Of a stretch of DNA of 64,000 bases, positions 10,922 to 58,261 are shown piece after piece. The notes beneath the pieces were generated by a model. The model ran no database searches and was not told the origin of the DNA. It was given only the letters and a program-made list of their open reading frames with translations. Each line of letters starts with the position of its first letter. Position 1 is the stretch's first letter. The position numbers were made by a program, and so were the translations under genes. The stretch is from a virus (Duplodnaviria > Caudoviricetes): IMG/VR virus record IMGVR_UViG_3300042258_000071, positions 1-64,000 of that record, one strand, 5' to 3'.

Positions 10922-11364
10922 TTTCAATATCTAACTATACGTGGACTTAATATTAAGAGTTATTGCGAACACGCTAAAGTTAGATAAGATAGGTCGCTTA
11001 GATAGAAATATTTAAGTGAGCGCTCCTTAATTGACGGGGACCTCCTAAAGCCAAATCCACCAACCATATCTAGTGATAGAGTATGGGGCCAACTGTAATG
11101 GGTTGGGTAAGGTAAAAGAGATTTGGATACATGGACGATCCGCAGCGAAGCACCTCACACCTGTCGGGATGACAGCGATGAGATGAACGTTCAACGACTA
11201 AGGGATTCACCACCCTGTAGGGCCAAGGGGCTCGAAATAGGAGCAACCTTATCATCTCCCCTTTACGAGATGAAGGTTAAGATATAGTCTCGGCATCTGG
11301 GGAAATCCCAGAGCAGCACGTTATTGTGCGGGTAGAGAACTACCGAACTCTACTGAAGACACCG
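10922..11364 (+). ncRNA. group I intron (443 nt, no homing endonuclease ORF) in nvRNAP beta
   Basis: Core elements P TTGACGGGGA, Q GATCCGCAGC, R GTTCAACGACTA, S AAGATATAGTC; 5' exon ends in U (ACU pairs with GGU guide); terminal G at 11364; removal restores in-frame DRFGT|KGIECQVVPDEHMP. Confidence 0.92.
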
Positions 11365-25363: not shown

Positions 25364-25650
25364 TGTTATGGACATTTCAGTTTTTCATGTTGGTTTTCCT
25401 GATATGTCTTTCCTCCCTCAAGAGTATATTCTAATTGATAGACACTGGTGATGCATATGTCTCTTAGAGTGTATTCTACCTTGTTCTTGTATAGTGAGAA
25501 CCCATGAGAGGTCCCTTAAGGGACCTCTCATGGTTATTTTGTGTGTTTTAATGCCGTAAAGGTATAGATTGTTTTTCTAACAGATATTTCATAATGTGTT
25601 ATGACTAAGGAGGAGGTATCAGGACTTTAAGGGTATCTGGATATCATTAG
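25361..25650 (+). ncRNA. candidate structured non-coding RNA
   Basis: Long-range pairing of 25397-25416 with 25609-25624 encloses several hairpins, including a 14-bp stem with 3 G-U pairs (25421-25434/25464-25477). Confidence 0.35.
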
Positions 25651-25661
25651 ATGCGGAGAAG

Positions 25662-25692
25662 TAAGAGGAAGGGGAGACTCCCCTTCCTCTTA
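25662..25692. terminator. bidirectional terminator at the end of the tail operon
   Basis: taagaggaagggga-gac-tccccttcctctta plus T-run. Confidence 0.85.
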
Positions 25693-25710
25693 TTATTTTT
25701 TTTTGTTAAT

Positions 25711-26160
25711 TCACAGAGTAGATGCTTCAATAAAGAGGTTATCGATGTCTTGACTTGTTAAAGAGAGTTCGTCTCCAACCAAAGAAATCCATTCCCAGTT
25801 ACGCCAAATCTCTGTTGCGTATTCCCAATCGATTTTAACTTTGGCTTTAAGAGTAACATCTTCAATATTGTCAATAATGGTTTCAGTAGATGCTAGAAGA
25901 TCGTGATTTAAAAGAACCGTACGAGCTTGTCGCATAGAGATTTTGGTGGGGACTACAATTGGAGGAACCGGATATGTCTCTCGGATAAAGTATTTAGCCC
26001 CGTCCCAAATAGCAACTTGTGTCCCCGTCAAAGAAGGTGGTACATGTCTTACCCAGTTAGGTTTACGTCCTTGTTTCGGATCATACTCTTTAAAATTTCC
26101 TGTATAAATATTTTTATCATCAAGTTCATAAATGTAAATGACTTCTATTTCTTCAACCAT
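25711..26160 (-). CDS. tail fibre assembly chaperone-like protein
   Basis: IYELD..NIYTG N-terminus; ISMRQAR..L, WEYATEIWRN and LTSQDIDNLFIEA motifs; directly downstream of the collar-domain genes. Confidence 0.75.
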   Translation of the reverse strand: MVEEIEVIYIYELDDKNIYTGNFKEYDPKQGRKPNWVRHVPPSLTGTQVAIWDGAKYFIRETYPVPPIVVPTKISMRQARTVLLNHDLLASTETIIDNIEDVTLKAKVKIDWEYATEIWRNWEWISLVGDELSLTSQDIDNLFIEASTL

Positions 26161-28004
26161 GCTTTTACACCTTCATCAAAAGTTGTTGTATCATAATTAG
26201 GGAGTTTAAATTCAGTAGATTCATTATACGAGTAACTTACACTTTTAGATATAAGAGTGAAATAGGGAGAATCATAATGAGCGGTAGCTAATAACGCCCC
26301 ATCCGGGGAGAATGCACATCCATATCCCGTAAACGGTAATATAGGTGTTCCACTCACCACACTCCAGTCTGAAGTGTTGAGAATCGTTAAATATGGAGAA
26401 CCAGTGTGCCCTATAGCTAAATAGTTACCATCTGGAGAAAAAGAGCATTTTCTCCCAATACCTGCTAAAGTAGGTGTTCCACTTACTATACTCCAGTCAA
26501 AGGTATTGAGAATTGTTAAATATGGTGAGGAGTTGAAGCCTATAGCTAAGTAAGTTCCATCAGGGGAGAATGCGCATCCATTCCCATAACCGGATAAAGT
26601 AGGTGTTCCACTCACTGTTGACCAGTCTGAGGTGTTAAGGATGGTGATGTATGGTGACCCTCCATGCGCTATAGCTAATAATGTTCCATCTGGAGAAAAT
26701 TTTATACTTCTCCCAATACCGGCTAAAGTAGGTGTTCCACTCACCACACTCCAATCGGAGGTGTTTAAGATGGTTAAATATGGTGAGGAATTGAAGCCTA
26801 CAGCTAAATAATTCCCATCTGGTGAAAAAGAGCATCCCCCCCCATAACCGGATAAAGTAGGTGTTCCACTTACTATTGACCAATCTGAAGTATTAAGGAT
26901 AGTTAGATAAGGAGAAACACTGTGTGTCACAGCTAGTAATGTCCCATCCGGGGAGAACGATGGCATCGATCCAATATATGCTAAAGTAGGTGTTCCACTT
27001 ACTATACTCCAGTCAGAAGTGTTTAAGATGGTTAAACCTGGGGGACCATCAAGAGCTACAGCTAATAACGCCCCATCTGAGGAGAATACGCATCCGTATC
27101 CATCATCCGGTAACGTAGGTGTTCCACTCACCACCTCAGTTGGCGCACTACTTACCCCACCAATTAACCCAACCTGAGCATATAGATCAGGTGCTTGGGA
27201 TTGCAGTAAAATGGTACCATCTGCATTCACATATCCTTTAGATGATAGATTATCTGTGGAATATAGTAAATCGCCAGTCTTAATAGGTCGACCATAAGGT
27301 CCATCAGATTTAATAATGTCATGTCCAGAGATGGCTTTTGAGAACATACCAATTTGTAGGTTCCACACCATTCGACCAGGAGCTTTGACATTTATGGGTC
27401 CCGTGGAAGGAGATGTGAGATAAGTATGTATTTCTTTAACTCTACGTCCTTCAGAAATATCACGAACATTAGCAGTTAATTGAATTGACGCACCATTCCA
27501 ACCGCTAGTACTTGTAACAGTACCAACAGGAAACATACTAGGGTACAGGTTGTTTACAACTGATACCGATGTAAAATCACTATCATAAGCATAAGGAACC
27601 TCTAGATGTTTAAAGGTAAAAACATACGTACTATCATCTTCAAATACTAGTCTCAGCTGGACGTTCCGGTCAGGTTTTCCATCGTCCAAGTCAGGATCTG
27701 CAGTTGTACCACTTGCTGAGTCAGCATCAAACCCTATAATACTGATTTCTTCCGGAGTATCAAACCTCCATGCAGGACTTATAGTTCTACTTAAGGGATT
27801 TCTCGAAAATTCCAATTCTAAAGGGACTCTGTACCCTGCAAACGGGGAATACACCATTGGTTGATACACCGATTCTGTAATATAAGCAACCCCAGGATCG
27901 ATGCGAGTGAGTATTCCTTTACTTGTTGTTGAAGTTTCCAGTAGATCATCTAATTCAAGATCAGAACCTTTAGGTGTAAGATCACCAATCGTCACATCAG
28001 CCAT
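26145..28004 (-). CDS. tail-collar/7-bladed beta-propeller receptor-binding protein 3 (with an extra ~190-aa beta-rich domain)
   Basis: Collar halves GDLLYS...GYVNADGTILLQSQAPDLYAQVG and TEFKLPNY flank seven 43-aa FSPDG repeats. Confidence 0.8.
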   Translation of the reverse strand: MADVTIGDLTPKGSDLELDDLLETSTTSKGILTRIDPGVAYITESVYQPMVYSPFAGYRVPLELEFSRNPLSRTISPAWRFDTPEEISIIGFDADSASGTTADPDLDDGKPDRNVQLRLVFEDDSTYVFTFKHLEVPYAYDSDFTSVSVVNNLYPSMFPVGTVTSTSGWNGASIQLTANVRDISEGRRVKEIHTYLTSPSTGPINVKAPGRMVWNLQIGMFSKAISGHDIIKSDGPYGRPIKTGDLLYSTDNLSSKGYVNADGTILLQSQAPDLYAQVGLIGGVSSAPTEVVSGTPTLPDDGYGCVFSSDGALLAVALDGPPGLTILNTSDWSIVSGTPTLAYIGSMPSFSPDGTLLAVTHSVSPYLTILNTSDWSIVSGTPTLSGYGGGCSFSPDGNYLAVGFNSSPYLTILNTSDWSVVSGTPTLAGIGRSIKFSPDGTLLAIAHGGSPYITILNTSDWSTVSGTPTLSGYGNGCAFSPDGTYLAIGFNSSPYLTILNTFDWSIVSGTPTLAGIGRKCSFSPDGNYLAIGHTGSPYLTILNTSDWSVVSGTPILPFTGYGCAFSPDGALLATAHYDSPYFTLISKSVSYSYNESTEFKLPNYDTTTFDEGVKAWLKK

Positions 28005-30385
28005 ATTCTACATACCTTTATCATGGAGATGGATCTGCTTGTATCCATGGTTTAACAGAAGTGTCAAATTCATCTGCATCTAAATAGTTAGGAAGTTTAA
28101 ACTCAGTAGATTCATCATAAGAGTATTCTACACTCCTAGTTATAAGAGTGAAATAGGGAGAACCCGTATGTCCAACAGTTAGATACATCCCATTGGGAGA
28201 GAATGCTGCATTCCTTCCATGGCTCACTAACGTAGGTGTTCCACTCACCACACTCCAATCGGAGGTGTTAAGTATCATTAAGTATGGAGACGCGTCGTGT
28301 CCTATAGCTAGCAATGTCCCATCTTGGGAAAATGCGACCCCCCGACCAAACCCTGCTAAAGGTGGTGTTCCACTCACAACAGACCAGTCAGAGGTATTGA
28401 GAACTGTTAAATATGGAGTACCCGCATGTCCTATAGCTAGCAATGTCCCATCTGGGGAGAATACGCAGCTATGGCCATTACCCGGTAGAGTAGATACACC
28501 ACTCACAACACTCCAGTCAGACGTGTTAAGTATGGTAACATAAGGGGACCCATAATACGCTACAGCTAAATAATTACCATCTGGAGAAAAGGAGGAGCTA
28601 ACTCCAATACCAGACAATACAGGTGTCCCACCAACCACACTCCAATCGGAGGTGTTAAGTATCATTAAGTATGGAGACGCGTCGTGTCCTATAGCTAGCA
28701 ATGTCCCATCTGGGGAGAATGTAACGCCACGACCATAGTAGACTAAAGTAGGTGTTCCACTCACAACACTCCAGTCAGAAGTGTTAAAGATGGTTAAATA
28801 TGGTGAACCGTTATGTCCAACGGCTAAATAGTTTCCATCTGGGGAGAATGCTGCGCCATACCCAGTGTATGGTAACGTTGGTGTCCCACTTACAACAGAC
28901 CAGTCTGAAGTATTAAGGATGGTGAGATAGGGCGAGACGTCATGCGCTATAGCTAAATAGGTTCCATTAGGTGAGAAGGAGCATCCATATCCAGTACCTG
29001 TTAAAGTAGGTGTTCCACTTACAACTTCTGTATGCGTTCCAAATATTCCACCTATAAGTCCAACTTTACTATAGAGTTGAGGATATGTAGATTGAAGATA
29101 GATAGTACCATCAGGTAAAAGATAGTCTAACGCACTTAAATCACGTACACTATATTTAACAGAACCTACGCCAACTAAGGAAAGGTTCGTAATAATGCCT
29201 GATAAGAATTGTTCTCCCGTAATAGATCTTGAAGCAAGTGATTCTCCAACAGTTGTTGTAACTTCTAGAAGATCTGTAGAAGATAAATTCGATCCCTTAG
29301 GTGTGAGTGTTGTGAGTTTAGCATCTGCCATAATAAAATCCTTTTTAAACGGCTCTTATCCAAGGTTTAATTTTAAGATAATCCCCAAAATGGACTGAAG
29401 CAGTATTCCATGTCGGGAGTTTAAACTCAGTAGCTTCATTATAAGAATATTCTACACTTTTAGATATGATAGTTAAACATGTGGAGCCCCCATGCCCAAC
29501 AGCTAAATAGTTTCCATCTTGGGTAAATGAACAGCTTTGTCCAGCAGACTGAAATACAGTTGCCCCACTCACATCCAGTATTGGCGTACCACTTACCACG
29601 CTCCAATCTGAGGTGTTAAGGATCGTTAAGTAGGGTGAATATAGATGCCCAACAGCTAAATAGTTTCCATCTGATGAAAAAGAACATCCAAATCCATTCC
29701 CCGGTAATGTAGGTGTTCCACTTACTATGCTCCAGTCTGAGAGGTTGATGATAGTTAAGTATGGAGAACTCTCAGAAACTACAGCTAACAAGGTCCCATC
29801 TGGTGAAAAAGAACAACTAACGCCAATACCCGGTAATGTAGGTGTTCCACTCACTACACTCCAGTCTGAAGTATTAAGAACGGTTAGATATGGGGAACCC
29901 GCATGCCCTATGGCTAAATAATTACCATCTGGTGAGAATGAACAACAACGTGCAGCACTAACCGTGGTTGGCACTCCGCTCACCACAGACCAGTCTGAGG
30001 TGTTAAGGATGGAGAACCCTGGTGAAGTTCCATAAGCTAAAGCTAATAATGCCCCATCTGGTGAGAATGCGCACCCATATACTCTGTCTGGTAACGTGGG
30101 TGTTCCACTCACTACACTCCAGTCAGAAGTGTTAAGGATCATTAAACAAGGTGAATCTATATGCCCAATGGAAAGTAAAGATCCATCTGGTGAGAATGTA
30201 CAACTGAGTCCGGCAAATGCCAACGTGGGTGTTCCACTCACTACACTCCAGTCAGAAGTGTTGAGGATGGTTAAATGTGCCGATCCTGACCCGTCATGTG
30301 CTGTAGCCAGCAATGTCCCATCTGGTGAGAATGCGCACTCATATACAGTACCGGGTAATGCTGGTGTTCCACTTACAACCTCCGT
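26250..30385 (-). repeat. three arrays of seven ~129-bp coding tandem repeats (21 units)
   Basis: taggtgttccact recurs at 26342, 26471, 26600, 26729, 26858, 26987 and 27116 (129-bp period); same unit in 28140-29025 and 29460-30385. Confidence 0.95.
28021..29331 (-). CDS. tail-collar/7-bladed beta-propeller receptor-binding protein 2
   Basis: VGSVKYS...YLLPDGTIYLQSTYPQLYSKVG, then 7 repeats, then TEFKLPNY. Confidence 0.8.
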   Translation of the reverse strand: MADAKLTTLTPKGSNLSSTDLLEVTTTVGESLASRSITGEQFLSGIITNLSLVGVGSVKYSVRDLSALDYLLPDGTIYLQSTYPQLYSKVGLIGGIFGTHTEVVSGTPTLTGTGYGCSFSPNGTYLAIAHDVSPYLTILNTSDWSVVSGTPTLPYTGYGAAFSPDGNYLAVGHNGSPYLTIFNTSDWSVVSGTPTLVYYGRGVTFSPDGTLLAIGHDASPYLMILNTSDWSVVGGTPVLSGIGVSSSFSPDGNYLAVAYYGSPYVTILNTSDWSVVSGVSTLPGNGHSCVFSPDGTLLAIGHAGTPYLTVLNTSDWSVVSGTPPLAGFGRGVAFSQDGTLLAIGHDASPYLMILNTSDWSVVSGTPTLVSHGRNAAFSPNGMYLTVGHTGSPYFTLITRSVEYSYDESTEFKLPNYLDADEFDTSVKPWIQADPSP

Positions 30386-30682
30386 GTGATCACCAAATAG
30401 TCCACCCAGTAACCCAACTTGAGCATATAGATCGGGGTAGACTGGCTGCTCTAATATTCTCCCATCCACTTCAAAGTAGATTGGGTCCGCTGTAAGATCC
30501 TCATGCGTGAAAATGATATCTCCAATCTTAACACCTTCAGTGGATAAATTACTATTAATAGCATTTAAAACATTAGCACCTGTAACAGATTTAGAAACAC
30601 TAGAGTCTTCAATTTCAAAAATGTCAGCTTCAAGAATGGAAGTACTTTTAGGAGTCATTTCAGATATTTTAAGGTCCGCCAT
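29345..30682 (-). CDS. tail-collar/7-bladed beta-propeller receptor-binding protein 1
   Basis: IGDIIFT...YFEVDGRILEQPVYPDLYAQVG, then 7 repeats, then TEFKLPTW. Confidence 0.8.
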   Translation of the reverse strand: MADLKISEMTPKSTSILEADIFEIEDSSVSKSVTGANVLNAINSNLSTEGVKIGDIIFTHEDLTADPIYFEVDGRILEQPVYPDLYAQVGLLGGLFGDHTEVVSGTPALPGTVYECAFSPDGTLLATAHDGSGSAHLTILNTSDWSVVSGTPTLAFAGLSCTFSPDGSLLSIGHIDSPCLMILNTSDWSVVSGTPTLPDRVYGCAFSPDGALLALAYGTSPGFSILNTSDWSVVSGVPTTVSAARCCSFSPDGNYLAIGHAGSPYLTVLNTSDWSVVSGTPTLPGIGVSCSFSPDGTLLAVVSESSPYLTIINLSDWSIVSGTPTLPGNGFGCSFSSDGNYLAVGHLYSPYLTILNTSDWSVVSGTPILDVSGATVFQSAGQSCSFTQDGNYLAVGHGGSTCLTIISKSVEYSYNEATEFKLPTWNTASVHFGDYLKIKPWIRAV

Positions 30683-30727: not shown

Positions 30728-30759
30728 AGTTAAGGGGTGAGATTTCTCACCCCTTAACT
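30728..30759. terminator. terminator hairpin between tail sub-operons
   Basis: agttaaggggtgag-attt-ctcaccccttaact. Confidence 0.8.
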
Positions 30760-30776
30760 TATATGTTACACCCTCT

Positions 30777-33218
30777 TTATCCTATCCTAGTCCATCGTCC
30801 AGAAATCTTCTTATAAGCACCTGCAACAGTCATCCAGTTACCGTTATATTTAGCAAATATAGTGGGGTTGGATGCTGAAGAGTTGACTTCTGTTACACGA
30901 ACATCTTGATCTGTTGTAACACGCACATCCCCATCTTCAGTTACACGATACGTGTGAGCTGTCCAGGAACCATTTAATTTAACACTGATATTGGGTTTAA
31001 AGGGGATGACATCTGCTATAGGGATGAGGATACCTTCAGACTGTAAAGCTACCTCTAAGAAGGGGTTAAAGGTGTCTGTAATAAGAATATCGCTAACACC
31101 TTCAAACTCCATAGAGAGATGTGCGATATTTATCACTGTAGACTGTATAGTACCAGAGCCTTCAAGGTCAGCCCAGTTCTCAATGAGAAGAGCAGGACGT
31201 GCAAGAACACTTCCTTCTCCAAAAAGAATCGTGAACCCAAATGAAGAGATATTTGAAATAGCAGGTTCGACAATAAGATTACCTTGAAGAGACACGCGCC
31301 CATTAAGAATGGTAGCCGGATTAGGTTTACTTATATCTGAAGAAGCAGTAAGCGTTGCAAATGCTTCAATGTAAACATCGGCATAAGGAGGGTCTAGATA
31401 TGACGCACCCGATAAGGTAGCTCTTGCAAAAGTCGTTCGTTCCCCTACAAGTAGGGTACCTCCATTGCCTCGTAAAGTTGTGGCGTTATACATCTGTAAG
31501 GCACATTTGGCCTCAAGAGTGCTAGTACCATTCCCTATAAAGAATTCAGAATACCCATATCCCATGATAGGTAGAAGGGTCCCCACACCTTGTAATATTT
31601 CAACTTCTGGGGGGTTCATATGGACAGTGTAGTGGGGTAGTTTTGCAAAAGATCCTTCAGCTTCAAAAGATATATGTCCAAGCATATAGAAGACTGAAGA
31701 GTTTAGAAAGGACGATGTCGTAGTAAGTGTTGAGAATGCTTTTGTAGTCCGGTATGCTTCTGAGAGGAAGGTGCTTGTACTAGAAAGCGTACTTCGACCC
31801 CAAGTGGTTCGTTCACCTGCAAGAATAACAGACCCATCATTAACAAGTGTCGTTTTTGCAATGACATTTAAACTGGGGCTAGAGAAAAGAGTGGTGTCCC
31901 CTGCGAAGGTTATAGTATCAAAGTTAATACTTGTACCTATAGCAGTAAGAGTTCCTTCACACGAGAATGTGCCAGATGCGTATGTTAATCGGTCTGCTGC
32001 TGCAGACTGAGATCCTGATCCAGATAAAATGGAAGATGCTAGTGTAACCCTGTCCCCACTAGAGGTAAGGTCACTTGACGCTATAAATTCTGCAGATTCA
32101 TTAGCGTGCAAGGTTTCAAGATAGACTGCATCACTAACCCCTTCAAACACTCCTCTTTGGGGGATTAAAAGGGTACAGATAGCAGTTATAGAACTTTCTG
32201 ATGTGAGAGTAGCTGAAGGGAATTGTGTTCTCTCAGCGGCGGTTATAACCCCCCCGTCAGCACTAAGGTTTGCAGCGGCATACCCAATCCAATTTACATG
32301 AGCATACCACTGACTAGAACCTTGTAGCTGAACTTGTGTAGAGGTAGAGTTCATATTAGAAATCGCAGATAGGAAAGAAGTGCCTTCTAATGAGACAGAA
32401 CTTTCTTTAAAAATGTAACCATTAGAGACGAGAACTCCTGCACCTGCTAGAAATATCGCACCTCGTAAGTTTATAGTGCCAGCTAGAGTTAGAGAGGACG
32501 CCCCCTCTAAAGATGCCTGACCTTCTTTAGTGATAACACCTCCATTAAGAAGACTGCTTTCACCAAGAAGAGTTACTCCTGCAAAGGTTTCTCTATGGGA
32601 GATACCTGTAAGAGATCCAACCCCCTGTAATACAAGAGCTGGGTACTTAAAGACCTCTCCATCAGAAACAAGAGTGCTCTCTCCAGAAAGACTTACTCCT
32701 GAGAAAGTTGTTCTAGATGCCTCTACAGAGAAAGTAGAAACTCCATCTAGGACAGATATCGCACGGGTTGTACGAGTACCTTCTGTTAAAAGAGTGCTGC
32801 CACCTGTTAGATTGACATTAGCGGGTGTCACTCTGGAGGCATTTACAGATAGGGTCGTATCGCCTTCGAATGAAGCTGATCCGCCCTTAAAGATATGTCC
32901 ACTGATGGACAGTGTCGATTCACCAATGAAGATCCCTACAGAAGCTAAAATAAGATCAGAGGATGCATAAACAGAAGCAATACCCTCTAATGAAGATGAT
33001 GCTTCCTTAGTGATGTCACCACTGGCTAAAAGTGTTCCTTCACCAGAGAAAATAGAATACCCTGGGCGGACAACGCCGCCCAGAGCATTTATAGTGGCAA
33101 CACCGTCTAATACGCAACCCGCATCAATAACTGGAGTACTGGATTCTGTTACACGGACGGTCGCATCCGTTGTAACTCGCCGGTCTCCATTTTCTGTTAT
33201 ACGAGGCGTATAGGCCAT
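30777..33218 (-). CDS. beta-rich repetitive tail fibre/appendage protein (813 aa)
   Basis: Degenerate ~20-aa repeats (L.G.S.L); R(I/V)TE(N/D)GD.RVTTD..VRVTE motif at both termini; C-terminal K.NG.W / K.SG.W repeats. Confidence 0.65.
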   Translation of the reverse strand: MAYTPRITENGDRRVTTDATVRVTESSTPVIDAGCVLDGVATINALGGVVRPGYSIFSGEGTLLASGDITKEASSSLEGIASVYASSDLILASVGIFIGESTLSISGHIFKGGSASFEGDTTLSVNASRVTPANVNLTGGSTLLTEGTRTTRAISVLDGVSTFSVEASRTTFSGVSLSGESTLVSDGEVFKYPALVLQGVGSLTGISHRETFAGVTLLGESSLLNGGVITKEGQASLEGASSLTLAGTINLRGAIFLAGAGVLVSNGYIFKESSVSLEGTSFLSAISNMNSTSTQVQLQGSSQWYAHVNWIGYAAANLSADGGVITAAERTQFPSATLTSESSITAICTLLIPQRGVFEGVSDAVYLETLHANESAEFIASSDLTSSGDRVTLASSILSGSGSQSAAADRLTYASGTFSCEGTLTAIGTSINFDTITFAGDTTLFSSPSLNVIAKTTLVNDGSVILAGERTTWGRSTLSSTSTFLSEAYRTTKAFSTLTTTSSFLNSSVFYMLGHISFEAEGSFAKLPHYTVHMNPPEVEILQGVGTLLPIMGYGYSEFFIGNGTSTLEAKCALQMYNATTLRGNGGTLLVGERTTFARATLSGASYLDPPYADVYIEAFATLTASSDISKPNPATILNGRVSLQGNLIVEPAISNISSFGFTILFGEGSVLARPALLIENWADLEGSGTIQSTVINIAHLSMEFEGVSDILITDTFNPFLEVALQSEGILIPIADVIPFKPNISVKLNGSWTAHTYRVTEDGDVRVTTDQDVRVTEVNSSASNPTIFAKYNGNWMTVAGAYKKISGRWTRIG

Positions 33219-33223
33219 GGGAG

Positions 33224-33619
33224 TTACGCCAGGCTAATAGAGATGTTACCGATCGCAAACGTTAAAGTATCGCCGTCGTTCACAATACGTTCAACTTGGA
33301 GAGGACCGTGCCATAGCAGATTCCCTCCCGTTGCAGCAGTGTAAATGCCAATATGGGTCAGGGTTCCCCAGTTCCCACCGGCAGCTGTGAACGATACTGG
33401 GTTTTGATTCTCAGTGGTCCCGGCAGGCGATGTTGCAGCTGCAAAAGCCACAGACTCACGTGCGTATCCATTACCCACTGGCTCAGTAATTGTGGTTCCG
33501 GTATCTGAGGAGGCTGTCGAGGAGAGCCCAATGTACCACTGGGTTGGACGCGTCACAGTCTCCGCCGTCATCAGGTAGTCGAGTAGAAGCTTTTCACTAT
33601 AATCTGAAAGTGCACTCAT
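33224..33619 (-). CDS. small conserved phage tail-fibre-associated protein
   Basis: SDYSEKLLLD..WYIGL..GYAR..V.F..WGTLTHIGIYTAATGGNLLWHGPL..GDTLTF pattern, a widespread ~130-aa family. Confidence 0.7.
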   Translation of the reverse strand: MSALSDYSEKLLLDYLMTAETVTRPTQWYIGLSSTASSDTGTTITEPVGNGYARESVAFAAATSPAGTTENQNPVSFTAAGGNWGTLTHIGIYTAATGGNLLWHGPLQVERIVNDGDTLTFAIGNISISLA

Positions 33620-33647
33620 TATTAAAATCCTTTAATCAAAGTTTGCA

Positions 33648-34016
33648 TTAAACCCGGAACCAGATATCACCATCAGAACCCCCGGAAGGTCCTTGGTTAG
33701 AGACAGTAATTTTATTGTTAAGGGCGGTTGTTGCAGCAGTGGCTGCGTTAGATGCAGCTTGCTGGGCATCTAGAGCTGCTTGTTCTGCGGCCTCACGGTT
33801 GACTATAATATTTCCGGTCTCCGTAGACAAAGCAGTATCAAAGAGGTTTTTAATGTCTTTAATGGCTTTTGCAACAGAAGGAACATTTCCACTTTCAGTT
33901 GAGATTTCAGTGGCATCATCACTATGAATGATACTGTGAAAAATTGCTTCATCTGCCGCATATAAGTCTGCAGTCTCTCGGATATATTGATCAAGAATTT
34001 CATCATAACTTGGCAT
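33648..34016 (-). CDS. short tail-fibre-related protein
   Basis: TESGNVPSVAKAI motif, Ala-rich coiled coil and C-terminal PSGGSDGDIWF motif. Confidence 0.6.
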   Translation of the reverse strand: MPSYDEILDQYIRETADLYAADEAIFHSIIHSDDATEISTESGNVPSVAKAIKDIKNLFDTALSTETGNIIVNREAAEQAALDAQQAASNAATAATTALNNKITVSNQGPSGGSDGDIWFRV

Positions 34017-34031
34017 CTGAGGTATCCTTAC

Positions 34032-34346
34032 TTATAATCTGTGACGGGCAGAAGTGTAATGTAGAATTCTATGAAAATAAAACATAGCATCTATGAGATT
34101 TTCACGATATTCAAATTGTGAGAGATCTGTAAGAGAACCAATCTCACGAGAGAGTGTTCCATCTGATAAGATGCGATATCGGCGATAGTATCTTTTAAAA
34201 GTCTCAATATGATACTCATCATAAAACACAGATCTATCAAGATATTTTTTAAAAGGATTACCCCGATATTGTTCGAACTCCCTAGGGAGGGACGGGGCAT
34301 AATACCCCGTTACTCGATTGGCTCCATCAATGTCAATGATGAACAT
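34032..34346 (-). CDS. hypothetical protein (104 aa) in the structural operon
   Basis: Tightly packed in the minus-strand operon. Confidence 0.6.
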   Translation of the reverse strand: MFIIDIDGANRVTGYYAPSLPREFEQYRGNPFKKYLDRSVFYDEYHIETFKRYYRRYRILSDGTLSREIGSLTDLSQFEYRENLIDAMFYFHRILHYTSARHRL

Positions 34347-34351
34347 ACATG

Positions 34352-36226
34352 TTAAACTTCAGCTAGAACGTAATTTAGATCAAAATTCACAGACGGTGGC
34401 ATGTTGTTACCGTCAGAAGTTCCAACTTTAAGAACCCCATCATCCGTAATTTTAACTTTTAAATAAAGACCAACGTCAGAGACAGCTGCCTGTCCTGTTA
34501 CCCCATTAGAAATGGCTGCTACTGGAATGTCAACATAAAGAGGAACAGAATTTGCATCTGTTAGATACAAGCGAACTTTTGTAATATCTTCTACTCGAAA
34601 ATGGGACGGGAGACGCGTTGTAAGATCTTGACTAAAACTATAAGTCATAAGTGGATTACCAGCTTCAAATACAAGATAAGGAACGTGGGGTGTTGGGATC
34701 ATTTTTGTGAACCATTTTGAGTCACTGTTAAACTCATCCCATGTCTGATCTCCACTTGGGAGAGCGACATTACTATCATTGGGCGTTGTGACGACAACAT
34801 CGCTCCCCATAAGAAGTTTCCAACAAGACTCTCGTCCAGAGAGATCTTCTATCGCAACGACTTCTTCAAGACCGATTACGGGCATACCAATTTGAAGATA
34901 TGCTCCCGATAAATATGAGCCATCACCATCATTGTAGATCACTCGAAGTTGGGGAGCGACAGAATATTGTGCATCTGACTCCCCCATGAGATCATACCCC
35001 ATGTCTTGTTGTCGAACATCACATGCAACAACAAACGGGTCACGCTCTGCAGTGAGATCAACAGATGCCGTAATATCCATCATGATTTTAGAGTGAACAA
35101 GTTTTATACGAAACTTAACCCGATCAGATACAACAACAGAAGGATTAGCACCTTCTTCTGCCGTATAGAGTTTGAAAATATTCCACCAGTGGAGCTGGGT
35201 ATCTACAGTGGTGAACGTACGACGAACGGAAGTCCCATTCCCTGTAACATCACCATATTGAGCGTTATTAAGAAGAATGCGCATAGCGTCCTCGACTCCC
35301 GTTAAACGGTTAAAGACCCCCCTCATGAGAGGACTTGTTGTAAGAGTATATTCTGTTAGGAAACTTTTATTTCCAAGATACTGAAGAATGTTATTAACTT
35401 CATCTGAAAGTTCTTTTACATCAAGATGATTGATCGTCCCACCGTACGCATGATAGGACATTTCGATCTCACCAGTGTATTCTTTCAAAATAAGAATATA
35501 TCGATACACTCCTGAAGTTTCAGAAGTTGTCTCTGTTCGATCAAGATCGCATCCAAAAATAACATAATCTGTATTTTGAACAAATGGAACACCGGTCGCT
35601 TTATCTCTTAATGAAAAAGAGGATCTAAAAAAAGCTCCATATGCAGGCGCTAAAATAGAGAGATTATCAAAGGTATTTACAAGTTGAACTTCATTTTCAA
35701 TGACATTATTAGAATTTGTCATATGTTGGTCAACATCAAGGGTTCTGACCGTCACATCATTTGGGATGATAGCATTCCCAATATTCGATGCAAGTATATT
35801 TTTAAGATGTGCAACATCCCCAACCAATTCCTCCATCATGGCAGGAGAGAGCTGGATCTGACCTCCTGAGGTATTATATTTTACCTGTACAGGGTAGAGT
35901 TGTTGATAGGATATACGAACAGGGATATTAATAAGAATTTCTTTAGTGATACGGATGCTTTTAACGAGACGTTCGTTAAAACTTCCATCGACCCCTTTCA
36001 TGAGGGCCATAGATGTTTCATCGACATCTAAGTCTTGCTGAACCTCCCATCCTCCGACACCTGGATTAATAATGGAATTGGCATCTGCAAGAAGTGACAT
36101 GACAATAGATGACTCATAAACAGGTGTTCCAAATTCAATAATTTGACCTGTTCGAAAGAGTGTAAGTGTTACACTATTTTTATAGTCAGGATCTTGTCCT
36201 GACAAGTCTGGTGTATAGTAACCCAC
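34352..36226 (-). CDS. putative baseplate/virion structural protein
   Basis: 624 aa; N.IENE...AP.YGAFF..S..L...DY..G segment resembles phiKZ-like baseplate proteins; AGGAG SD with GTG start. Confidence 0.55.
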   Translation of the reverse strand: MGYYTPDLSGQDPDYKNSVTLTLFRTGQIIEFGTPVYESSIVMSLLADANSIINPGVGGWEVQQDLDVDETSMALMKGVDGSFNERLVKSIRITKEILINIPVRISYQQLYPVQVKYNTSGGQIQLSPAMMEELVGDVAHLKNILASNIGNAIIPNDVTVRTLDVDQHMTNSNNVIENEVQLVNTFDNLSILAPAYGAFFRSSFSLRDKATGVPFVQNTDYVIFGCDLDRTETTSETSGVYRYILILKEYTGEIEMSYHAYGGTINHLDVKELSDEVNNILQYLGNKSFLTEYTLTTSPLMRGVFNRLTGVEDAMRILLNNAQYGDVTGNGTSVRRTFTTVDTQLHWWNIFKLYTAEEGANPSVVVSDRVKFRIKLVHSKIMMDITASVDLTAERDPFVVACDVRQQDMGYDLMGESDAQYSVAPQLRVIYNDGDGSYLSGAYLQIGMPVIGLEEVVAIEDLSGRESCWKLLMGSDVVVTTPNDSNVALPSGDQTWDEFNSDSKWFTKMIPTPHVPYLVFEAGNPLMTYSFSQDLTTRLPSHFRVEDITKVRLYLTDANSVPLYVDIPVAAISNGVTGQAAVSDVGLYLKVKITDDGVLKVGTSDGNNMPPSVNFDLNYVLAEV

Positions 36227-36243
36227 AAAAGGTCTCCTACAAT

Positions 36244-36864
36244 TTAAGGCGTTTGCGATAGTGCAATAATTTTCTCTTCATATTTTTGAACCTTAGTTTG
36301 AAGAGACGTAATAAGAGTGTTTAAATCCTGAATCTTTTTAGACTGTAAATCCATGTTTTGAATATTAGCTTGTCGAGCTTGTTCGATGACATCCCACTCA
36401 GTCTGGGTCATCCATTTAACTTGAGGACTAAACAACTTACAGGTCTTATCAGTACCTGTTGATCCTGCTACAAAATCATTAAGCTCATTTACAATCCATG
36501 TAATTTTAGAAGGATCTTGAAAAACACCTAAACTCACACGAAGCGTCATGTCATAAGCTTTAATAATTTGAGGATCCGGTACCTCATCAATAAGTCGTGA
36601 AGGGACAAATATGACACGGTCAGGATCTTCGATGGAGGCTAGTTTTAAGACTTGGTCTTCTTTATAGTTCTTCCAGTCTGATGCAAAAGATTCATCAGGG
36701 TCGGAGTATGCCGTGTATGAATAGAGGTAATCAACAAAGTTAACACCATCATCAATGGCCGATTCAAAAGAGACCAGGTGCGTTAAGGTGTAGATCCCAT
36801 TAAGAACATTGAAAGGGGAAACAAATATAAATTTTGCAGTGGTACCAATGGATGGGACTATCAC
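36244..36864 (-). CDS. putative virion structural protein with a C-terminal coiled coil
   Basis: 206 aa; P.IGT..F....PF N-terminus and VSLGVF motif; operon context. Confidence 0.5.
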   Translation of the reverse strand: MIVPSIGTTAKFIFVSPFNVLNGIYTLTHLVSFESAIDDGVNFVDYLYSYTAYSDPDESFASDWKNYKEDQVLKLASIEDPDRVIFVPSRLIDEVPDPQIIKAYDMTLRVSLGVFQDPSKITWIVNELNDFVAGSTGTDKTCKLFSPQVKWMTQTEWDVIEQARQANIQNMDLQSKKIQDLNTLITSLQTKVQKYEEKIIALSQTP

Positions 36865-36867
36865 GTA

Positions 36868-38244
36868 TTATGCTCCAACTTGATTTAAGAAACTGTCCTT
36901 TGTCATAACGTAATATTCCGTCGTCCCAACAATAAACGGAATATAAATAGAACCGTTCTCAATACGCTGAGGATAAAGTTCATTACTTACAGCGCCCGAT
37001 GCAACAGCAGCTGCCTCATTCAATCTTTGAGAGAAGAGTTTTGTATGTTGTTCCATGTTCGCATAACCAGGTTCCGATGAGGAATAGCTCTGATATGTTG
37101 GATGAATAGATTGTACAGAAGTATATGTTAAATTGACTTCATTTGGAACAGCTGTTAAGGTTAGCTGATCATAAGCCGCCCCCATAACTTCGATATTTTC
37201 TTCAATATAAGTCGGTGAATAAAAGGGGAGTGCAAGACGTGTGTTTTGGATCATCTTCCCGATCGGGCCCACATTAGGATAAGTGATCCCATCAGGTCTG
37301 ACTGCGGTAATGTTCCACTGAGGAATGAGGTAGAACTGATCCACAATGAACAATTCTGGAGCACGATCTCTCCAGTTCTGCTCCGTTCCAACTCCAGAAC
37401 CTAAGACTTCTTCACGAATGATGTTTCGAATATCAAGAATGCTTGGAACACGACCTTTATGAAGAATACCAAAAGGGAAATTTCTGATGTTATTTAGAGT
37501 GTCATGCATCTTAACATCATGAAGATAAAGGCCTGTTAAATTATCAATACTTAACTTAGGTGTGATAATGTCTCTAATACGTTCAGCGGCTTCCTTTGAA
37601 GGGTCAAACACATTATACCCGCCACCTGTCAGGGGGTTATTAAGAATGACCGGGTAAGAAAGAAGGGGTACCATCTCAACGATAGTGGAGAGAGGATATT
37701 CTTCCTTAAACTCAGCATCCCCGACCCAAATCTTAAAATCATACTCAACTGTATCAACACCATTGTTAGACGCAATTGTAAATCCAGCCCAAGTAGGAAC
37801 TTCAACAAGCGTCCCACCTGCACTGTATACAACAGCTTCTTTTCGCGTTGAAGACAGCGTTAGAGAACCTGCTTTAAAAATAGAATATGTATTTTGAAGG
37901 GTCGTATCAAGATTACTTACAGACTCAGAAGGTTCTGATAAGATAAAAACGCGATCAAGGATATTGAAGAAAGCATCTCTATCTGCAGAAGGAATGGTTT
38001 CAAAATCTCCTAAAAATGTAGGATATTCGTTACCATCAACCAGGAGATATGGTGCGGTATTAGAAATGTATCCATCGAACCATGTACGCGATGTCCGTCC
38101 GTCTTGAAGAGACTTTGTGTTGTTAAAATAAGAGGAAGATCCAACAGAAGGGATGAACATCCCCTCCGACACATACTGATCAACAACTGTCTCAGAAGGA
38201 AGAAAGGCGCGATCTTTATAAAAACCGTAAATAACGTCGGCCAT
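36868..38244 (-). CDS. putative virion structural (baseplate) protein
   Basis: 458 aa; F..EYP, W....PELF....F..IP.W motifs reminiscent of phiKZ-like structural proteins; a minus-strand TATG lies upstream near 38280. Confidence 0.55.
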   Translation of the reverse strand: MADVIYGFYKDRAFLPSETVVDQYVSEGMFIPSVGSSSYFNNTKSLQDGRTSRTWFDGYISNTAPYLLVDGNEYPTFLGDFETIPSADRDAFFNILDRVFILSEPSESVSNLDTTLQNTYSIFKAGSLTLSSTRKEAVVYSAGGTLVEVPTWAGFTIASNNGVDTVEYDFKIWVGDAEFKEEYPLSTIVEMVPLLSYPVILNNPLTGGGYNVFDPSKEAAERIRDIITPKLSIDNLTGLYLHDVKMHDTLNNIRNFPFGILHKGRVPSILDIRNIIREEVLGSGVGTEQNWRDRAPELFIVDQFYLIPQWNITAVRPDGITYPNVGPIGKMIQNTRLALPFYSPTYIEENIEVMGAAYDQLTLTAVPNEVNLTYTSVQSIHPTYQSYSSSEPGYANMEQHTKLFSQRLNEAAAVASGAVSNELYPQRIENGSIYIPFIVGTTEYYVMTKDSFLNQVGA

Positions 38245-51740: not shown

Positions 51741-52095
51741 CGTACTATTCCATAAAGGTTCGGTATCTCCTTCATGCGCAGCATAACCTGCAGCTATGGC
51801 TTTCACCATAGACTAGATCATATCTTTACCTTGAGTCATATGACTGTTAGGTAACTCCCATTTCGAGACCCCTTGGTCCTACAGGCTGACAAAGCCTTGA
51901 TCGTTGAACGTTCATCTTAAGGATGTCTCACGACAGTCTTAAGACACTTCGCTGCTGGTTGCCCAATCTTCACATTTTTCAAACTATCACGCTTGTCGTT
52001 ACCAACTACGTTGTAGTATGTAAAGCTCTAAGGGGGTTCTAGCAATTAGAGAGCATTCACTTAAAACTTTTCAGTTAAAAGCGGACAAATAGTTT
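51741..52095 (-). ncRNA. group I intron (355 nt, no ORF) in vRNAP beta
   Basis: P1 GAU|AAA-cua-UUUGUC; R GUUCAACGAUCA and S AAGAUAUGAUC; terminal G; removal gives in-frame TQDD|GKRLSFCSIQ. Confidence 0.92.
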
Positions 52096-57898: not shown

Positions 57899-58261
57899 CC
57901 TTTATATTCCATAAAGGATCGGTCGCCCCTTATGCGCAGCATAACCTGCAGCTATGACTTTCATCATAGAGTAGACTATATCTTCACTATAGGTTGTGTG
58001 GTGTAACCCTTAAGTGTCTCCTATTTCGGGTCCCTTGACCCTACTCCCCGCTACGGGATAGTCGTTGAACGTTCACCATACTACTGTCGTCACGACATGT
58101 ATAAGGCGCTTCGCTGCTGATCATCCATTGTAACATTTGATACCTTTTTGAACTATCACGCTCACCTTTTCAGGTCACGTTGTAGTGTATCAACTTTAGG
58201 ACTTTCCAGCAATTAAGGAGATATCATCTTAGCTATTTCTAACTAAGTGGACTATCAATTA
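57899..58261 (-). ncRNA. group I intron (363 nt, no ORF) splitting the catalytic DxDGD motif
   Basis: P1 GAU|UA-auuga-UAGUC; P UUGCUGGAA, Q GAUCAGCAGC, R GUUCAACGACUA, S AAGAUAUAGUC; terminal G at 57899; spliced LGAD|YDGD. Confidence 0.93.

Follow-up and report, generated by a model that had tools for sequence, protein, structure and literature searches.

DNA copying between blades in a tandem trio of predicted beta-propeller genes of a wastewater phage

Introduction

Three adjacent phage genes, each with exactly seven similar repeats that are predicted to be propeller blades, raise the question of whether blades are exchanged within and between neighbouring genes and, if so, how often and by what means. 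The genes, here named A, B and C, lie on the minus strand at 26145-30682 of a 64,000-nt stretch of DNA (the window), which is the start of a complete virus record of 236,443 bp with terminal repeats (IMGVR_UViG_3300042258_000071; Duplodnaviria, Caudoviricetes). The phage occurs in wastewater metagenomes and is assigned by its gene content to the phiKZ-like jumbo phages, because split RNA polymerase subunits, a tail sheath, homologs of phiKZ internal proteins and weak matches to OBP/Miami-type virion proteins were found.

Phage tail genes are varied by diversity-generating retroelements (DGRs) and by invertase shufflons, which vary surface residues while leaving the tail-protein scaffold conserved. 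Targets of DGRs have been described (PMC10743442). A first reading of the window, made from the DNA letters (the original prediction), took the trio for split tail-collar proteins with a pool of interchangeable blades, reshuffled by recombination to vary receptor binding, with neither a reverse transcriptase (RT) nor an invertase nearby. Here, we report a computational analysis of this claim.

Results

Gene A (445 aa, 29345..30682), gene B (436 aa, 28021..29331) and gene C (619 aa, 26145..28004) are built to one plan: a short N-terminal anchor is followed by a collar-like N-half, a seven-blade propeller and a collar-like C-half, to which gene C adds a beta-rich insert of ~190 aa (about aa 30-220). 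The propellers span aa 102-410 of A (blades A1-A7, 29453..30379), aa 103-401 of B (B1-B7, 28129..29025) and aa 291-589 of C (C1-C7, 26238..27134), all on the minus strand; in A and B they are preceded by only about 100 aa. The open reading frames (ORFs) bear out exactly seven repeats per gene at a spacing of 43 aa (129 bp), and Tandem Repeats Finder (TRF) returned a period of 129. Insertions in the blades of A amount to 2 aa in A1 and 8 aa in A7. All blades are in direct orientation, and neither blade DNA nor blade protein was found in the genome outside 26145-30682, so that there is no separate template repeat. As claimed for the surroundings of the trio, no reverse transcriptase (PF00078) and no serine or tyrosine recombinase (PF00239, PF00589) was found, here in the complete genome. 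A gene for a UvsX-like recombinase is present; it was found by PHROGs and missed by Pfam RecA.

The very high repeat identity of the original prediction proved to be overstated: mean amino acid identity within genes is 57% (A), 61% (B) and 64% (C), nucleotide identity between blades is 50-88% with a mean of about 65%, and the median pairwise synonymous divergence (dS) amounts to 1.3. In a DNA tree the 21 blades form a star and group neither by gene nor by position, and the clustering by position expected of a simple gene triplication was not seen. Silent distances were slightly lower for pairs of blades from the same gene (p 0.005). When each blade's protein was held fixed and synonymous codons were shuffled, 0.2 within-gene exact tracts of at least 30 bp were expected; five were found, one of 78 bp and four of 30-41 bp (p<0.001). 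The longest is common to B3 (28634..28711) and B6 (28247..28324), which lie 387 bp or three blades apart, and covers codons 19-44 including the second variable loop. Further tracts lie at the A1/A2 junction (41 bp, 30222..30262, partner 30093-30133), at the C1/C2 junction (37 bp, 26979..27015, partner 26463-26499) and in B3/B5 (36 bp, 28685..28720, partner 28427-28462). Between genes, 18 exact tracts of at least 20 bp were found versus 8.4 expected (p 0.003). The longest of these has 38 bp (p 0.02-0.04) and connects the B6/B7 junction (28232..28269) with the C3/C4 junction (26728-26765); all of these tracts are on the minus strand. Distances of the blade thirds were mutually uncorrelated, as in mosaics, although saturation would have the same effect. 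Contigs from wastewater runs break at the ends predicted by the tracts and hold no alternative letters there; therefore, misassembly of this record does not account for the tracts. Blades within a gene have copied DNA from one another, with a weaker signal between genes, and the exchange is mostly intragenic, in tracts shorter than a blade.

The five loop motifs said to recur at different blade positions in different genes do all exist at such places, but they are no commoner between genes than chance (p 0.16 and 0.27) and the silent codons of their copies agree at the background level of about 53%. Since they are no commoner than chance, they were rejected as proof of shuffling.

The history of the trio was traced with a sister phage (L181, a Logan contig), which a protein search returned when the 624-aa neighbour was the query; as single-protein queries against viral contigs, gene B and the 458-aa neighbour gave nothing. 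The core genes of L181 are 63-77% identical to those of the window and it carries a syntenic trio (a, b and c). The non-repeat flanks pair A with a, B with b and C with c (bootstrap 89-94), a clade per genome was rejected (approximately unbiased test, p-AU 0.015) and the gene C insert is common to C and c; therefore, the triplication is older than the split between window and sister. The window blades are 61% alike across genes and only 41% alike to the sister blades, without a positional diagonal to their orthologs, and among themselves the sister blades reach only 33%. Furthermore, in ten columns A, B and C use one and the same silent codon, and Ser3 is encoded by AGT in 19 of 20 cases (genome frequency 0.18). 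Old paralogy combined with blades that are not gene-specific points, with moderate support, to homogenisation between the paralogs (concerted evolution) in the window lineage. All six genes of the two phages have seven blades. Gene b of L181 (16241-18049) has a C-terminal extension of ~150 aa that is missing from window B; the only window gene with an extra domain is C.

The AlphaFold2 (AF2) model of gene B (mean predicted local distance difference test, pLDDT, of 86, and 93-99 over the blades) is a seven-bladed propeller whose four-stranded blades close the ring. It matched the seven-bladed WRAP propeller (2ymu) with a template modelling (TM) score of 0.91 and a Z of 38, the closest structures being repetitive bacterial WD40 proteins. 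The repeats of A, B and C are, in agreement with the propeller fold claimed before, predicted to form a seven-bladed WD40-like beta-propeller. The WD40 profile (PF00400) scored 38-52 bits over the whole proteins against a cut-off of 27, yet no single stretch passes, and the canonical marks are missing: the GH and WD dipeptides are absent, there is no GH in the linker and the position of the conserved Asp (column 30) is variable.

A shared framework with two variable windows, as described in the original prediction, was recovered in the column entropies across the 21 blades, which peak at columns 29 (3.1 bits), 11 (2.9) and 13 (2.8), followed by 9-10, 14 and 30. In the register of 2ymu, columns 11, 13 and 29 correspond to the WD40 top-face positions R1-2, R1 and D-1, respectively (position rule: PMC3419727), and their spacing agrees with that of three of the four selected codons of HET-E (PMC1805685). 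The most variable columns are thereby mapped, by topology and register and not from model coordinates, to what is probably the top (binding) face of the propeller, in place of being scattered or buried. In 32 internally similar relatives columns 11, 13 and 29, together with 30, are likewise the most variable; in the close-variant clusters 5-7 changes do not focus on these columns. The loops were said to be rich in Y/H/R/N/D/F, which do make up 39% of the loop positions, but Gly and Ser are commonest. Per repeat position, the framework is constrained (non-synonymous divergence, dN, of 0.21 versus a dS of 1.27), while the dN/dS of the hot columns cannot separate relaxed from positive selection.

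The tail-collar match is below threshold. A collar-like motif precedes the repeats and a short collar-like tail follows them in all three genes; the single PDB match of the N-half profile was a short tail fibre (E 0.11), and a home-made profile from the joined halves gave weak matches only. A collar domain interrupted ("split") by the propeller is likely from these matches but not proven. In P0113, another and shorter repeat, with the linker alone in common, interrupts a collar-like domain at the corresponding position, which suggests that the collar loop may be a general insertion site. For the gene C insert no sequence relatives were found except the sister ortholog, and its structure model is of low confidence and matches beta-sandwich domains at a TM of only about 0.5. 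A 33-bp piece of gene C immediately ahead of the collar N-half (27302-27334) has an exact copy at genome C1 178028-178060, in coding sense, in the gap upstream of a helix-turn-helix (HTH) gene 150 kb away. Both forms occur in wastewater contigs; flanking repeats and Rfam matches over the cut-off were not found for the piece.

The blade belongs, judged by its profile matches, to a large family of phages and prophages that has no name yet. A blade search gave 1,859 matches among 8,000 candidates, besides many IMG/VR and prophage-like loci, and 1,382 clusters were obtained with the family profile at E<=1e-30, which may include ordinary WD40 proteins. The relatives have the same framework in varied domain settings and GC contents. 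The best PHROG match of A, B and C is phrog_19311 (E 1e-41 to 1e-49), and several such propellers are combined in the proteins P0189-P0271 (1,000-5,700 aa). Many unrelated members have exact tracts of 40-118 bp in common between blades. Ortholog pairs behave in two ways: in some, blades are fixed by position at 82-100% (L008/P0011/P0012; P0079/P0094), in others the positional match is lost while the flanks are still 83-96% identical. An unrelated phage of ~170 kb has a propeller trio of its own (L178 3888-10605), each gene with a LamG domain. In two of its strains, which are 98-99% identical upstream, the gene b propeller differs by 14-22% (78-86% identical) and is pieced together from 18-72-bp stretches of other blades, the paralog a being 96-100% identical. 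Two otherwise identical assemblies of this ~170-kb phage differ at one blade only, each version (L172 and L180) being an exact copy from the neighbouring paralog. In L180, 132 bp from a blade of that paralog are present with new 25-mers at the junction; this inter-gene copy is more likely real. In the prophage-like loci L083 and L177 (Marichromatium) the propeller was replaced wholesale (45-57% nucleotide identity, flanks 86-99%). Fast turnover at strain level is seen in other members of the family, not in this phage.

Some candidate events were set aside. All 55-mers of a whole-blade swap (L172/P0055) are present in the reference, so that an assembler chimera is possible, and a one-blade deletion (P0035) has 55 bp of microhomology and may be an assembler product. 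Blade-number variants in general (P0035; clusters 2, 3, 4 and 8) may result from collapse, and fewer than seven blades would make a poor ring.

The end of gene C is overlapped by gene D (149 aa, phrog_6034; 25711..26160, minus strand), a homolog of which (32% identity) is also located 3' of a propeller gene in an unrelated phage. Gene D is a candidate partner or assembly chaperone of the propeller proteins. Terminator-like hairpins lie upstream of gene A (30728..30759, minus strand) and downstream of gene D (25660..25694, strand not assigned), both as pattern matches only; a scan for promoters gave matches at chance level. The gap 3' of gene D contains a perfect 32-bp palindrome (25502-25533). 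Upstream of the trio, a structural module (30777..38244, minus strand) that is syntenic in the sister phage encodes an 813-aa repetitive fibre-like protein, a Gp80-like protein of 131 aa, a 122-aa tail-fibre-like protein and phiKZ-type virion proteins. The sister ortholog of the 813-aa gene (30777-33218) has 586 aa and its repeats are only 25% identical, compared with 63-77% for the neighbours, and the gene appears from this comparison to be a second fast-changing, length-variable fibre-like gene. A fibre-like ORF of 369 aa with imperfect repeats of ~63 aa lies distant from the tail module (genome C1 167537-168646). Five homologous elements of ~250-350 bp, 70-80% identical, are dispersed at 11121-11359, 51741-52090 and 57904-58260 of the window and at 104663-105015 and 231200-231553 of the genome.

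Discussion

Taken as a whole, the trio is probably best explained by occasional gene conversion plus point mutation at the top face of a likely attachment protein. A, B and C would be old paralogous accessory proteins of the tail or baseplate, each displaying a propeller set in a tail-collar-like domain; their location in the virion and their binding role are suggested by the tail-module context, and the top face would most likely be the surface that binds the host or its envelope. The 21 direct repeats in register would let ordinary homologous recombination, catalysed by the phage's UvsX-like recombinase or by an enzyme of the host, now and then paste pieces of 20-80 bp from blade to blade, frequently inside one gene and more rarely across genes; recombination of this kind may be enough to explain the tracts. 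The copying would hold the three genes to a similar framework and carry loop variants to new positions, new variants would arise by point mutations at three or four top-face positions, where they are tolerated or favoured, and the number of seven blades would be held by selection. The result is probably a slowly renewed host-attachment surface, and blade exchange may have adaptive value. Of the recombining blade pool in the original prediction, exchange between blades was retained; freely interchangeable whole blades under active reshuffling were not, given short and mostly intragenic tracts, near-saturated silent sites and four runs without variants.

Several observations weigh against gene conversion as the shaping force. 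The between-gene signal is modest, its longest tract being 38 bp of framework only; the recurrence of loops across genes is at chance level, and blades at the same position keep a weak silent-site signal (p 0.003). Identity at four-fold degenerate sites is 45% between genes (95% confidence interval (CI) 35-57) versus 40% for the flanks and 35% for core orthologs; as these controls overlap, it was dropped as a clock. The sister rows are long-branched, and the propeller tree is without resolution. Unrelated family members match window blades up to 59%, therefore much of the likeness at the protein level needs no local exchange. The hot-column dN/dS of about 1.0-1.4 is near saturation and comes from columns picked post hoc, and the PF07484 match of the N-half is below the Pfam cut-off (16.5 bits for C and 19.5 for B versus 24; none for A). 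No single-nucleotide polymorphism (SNP), indel or novel joint was found at the trio in four wastewater runs, at a contig level that drops rare variants and hides crossovers inside tracts of at least 31 bp; the runs are possibly not independent (three may be source samples), and two runs, X5 and X6, cover little of the locus and are uninformative on variation. A contig from the Joint Genome Institute (JGI) is 100% identical over 17.9 kb. The blade polymorphism among reads or relatives that had been anticipated is, as far as contigs show, absent from this phage in the four runs.

These points have to be set against what other accounts would explain. If an old amplification had simply been kept by purifying selection, the fold would demand the consensus, the loops would drift near-neutrally and exact tracts would be incidental, functionless by-products of direct repeats; the median dS of 1.3, a hot-column pN/pS of about 1.0-1.16, the framework shared with unrelated phages at up to 59%, chance-level loop recurrence, ortholog sets fixed by position at 82-100% and the runs without variants would all fit. 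We nevertheless consider this unlikely, since silent codons are common to all three old paralogs, the tract excess persists with proteins held fixed, a variable loop was copied within the 78-bp tract and the diagonal to the sister is missing, as it is in other members whose flanks are still 83-96% identical. A single renewal, in which all three genes of this lineage had their older propellers replaced by a uniform one, taken over from another phage or re-amplified from one blade, with later divergence and only local duplications, would account for window blades being nearer to those of unrelated phages (up to 59%) than to the sister orthologs (41%), and it has parallels in the whole-propeller replacements with conserved flanks in the Marichromatium prophage-like loci and L008/L085 and in the re-amplification that is common in propellers (PMC9218822). 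Repeated events are instead suggested by tracts that differ in age and length (20-78 bp) and by blade thirds whose histories do not correlate, the positional clades expected from one propeller copied three times are absent apart from the weak signal mentioned, and DNA transfer between genes would still be needed, which overlaps with gene conversion; a single renewal is therefore improbable. Dedicated active shuffling, with frequent exchange of whole blades in the population and a standing library of receptor specificities as in DGRs or shufflons, is very improbable. In-register direct repeats, the star-like tree, the inter-gene copy in a related trio (L180) and blade-number variants in several clusters speak for it. 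Yet the complete genome is devoid of RT and of serine and tyrosine recombinases, blades are only about 65% identical with a single tract longer than 41 bp, the four runs are without variants, and the clearest swap (L172), like the deletion of one blade (P0035), can be explained as an assembler product.

Occasional gene conversion thus makes the trio resemble a slow version of the HNWD arrays of Podospora anserina (HET-D, HET-E, HET-R; PMC1805685, PMC2873952), without dedicated machinery, and the likeness noted in the original prediction is supported by the within-gene tract excess and the top-face variation. In both, WD40-type repeats of paralogs are exchanged within and between genes, mostly within, and vary at top-face positions in the d-a loop and the b-c turn. 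Unlike HNWD proteins, the trio gave no Pfam hit to a NACHT or death/N-terminal effector domain and stands in a phage structural context; its repeats are 42-87% alike compared with up to 100%, the fourth variable site is shifted, and all six window and sister genes have seven blades. The trio works like HNWD arrays but is not a member of them. Highly repetitive propellers (WRAP 2ymu, PkwA 5yzv; PMC9218822, PMC5587647) have the same fold and are the best matches in structure and sequence. The means of the trio (57/61/64%) straddle the 60% line of PMC9218822 and lie below the 70% line of PMC5587647; unlike these propellers, the trio is without GH and WD dipeptides, and its silent sites are old but patched. 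Such propellers have been explained by recent amplification, with phage or gene conversion unmentioned (PMC9218822). Phage tail-collar proteins (PF07484; short tail fibres such as 9cuy chain c) share the collar-like N-half motif, the collar-like C-terminal strand and the tail-module context. They differ in that the trio has a whole propeller in mid-domain, no fibre shaft or needle and a match below the curated cut-off. As in DGR and shufflon systems, variable surface residues are predicted on a conserved scaffold, but RT, template repeat, invertase and inverted sites are missing from the trio and change is slow and homology-driven. The same type of blade is found in cultured phages in phrog_19311, for example in Salicola phage CGphi29 (SLPG_00037), where it is annotated as hypothetical; CGphi29 has a single gene with 30% identity and no described function. 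In the open literature, to which the search was confined with subscription literature outside it, no description of the propeller family or of gene conversion among the blades of phage tail proteins was found.

Tentatively, and at less than even confidence, the trio may be a slower member of a large family of phage and prophage tail adhesins that use a portable propeller as a variable head, diversified by patching among blades and tandem paralogs without RT or invertase and setting host specificity, a phage counterpart of the repeat arrays of fungal NOD-like receptors (NLRs). The fungal precedent for concerted evolution of WD repeats limits the surprise. For the phiKZ-like group the trio would provide useful candidate attachment proteins, since in the phiKZ-like phage Goslar tail fibres and the peripheral baseplate could not be assigned by cryo-electron microscopy (10.64898/2026.04.21.720040). 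If the propellers bind hosts, patching among blades would diversify receptor binding in a further way, next to DGRs, shufflons and the swapping of whole domains. A related family member offers a natural series of strains, and the family has both fixed and fast-changing lineages for comparison.

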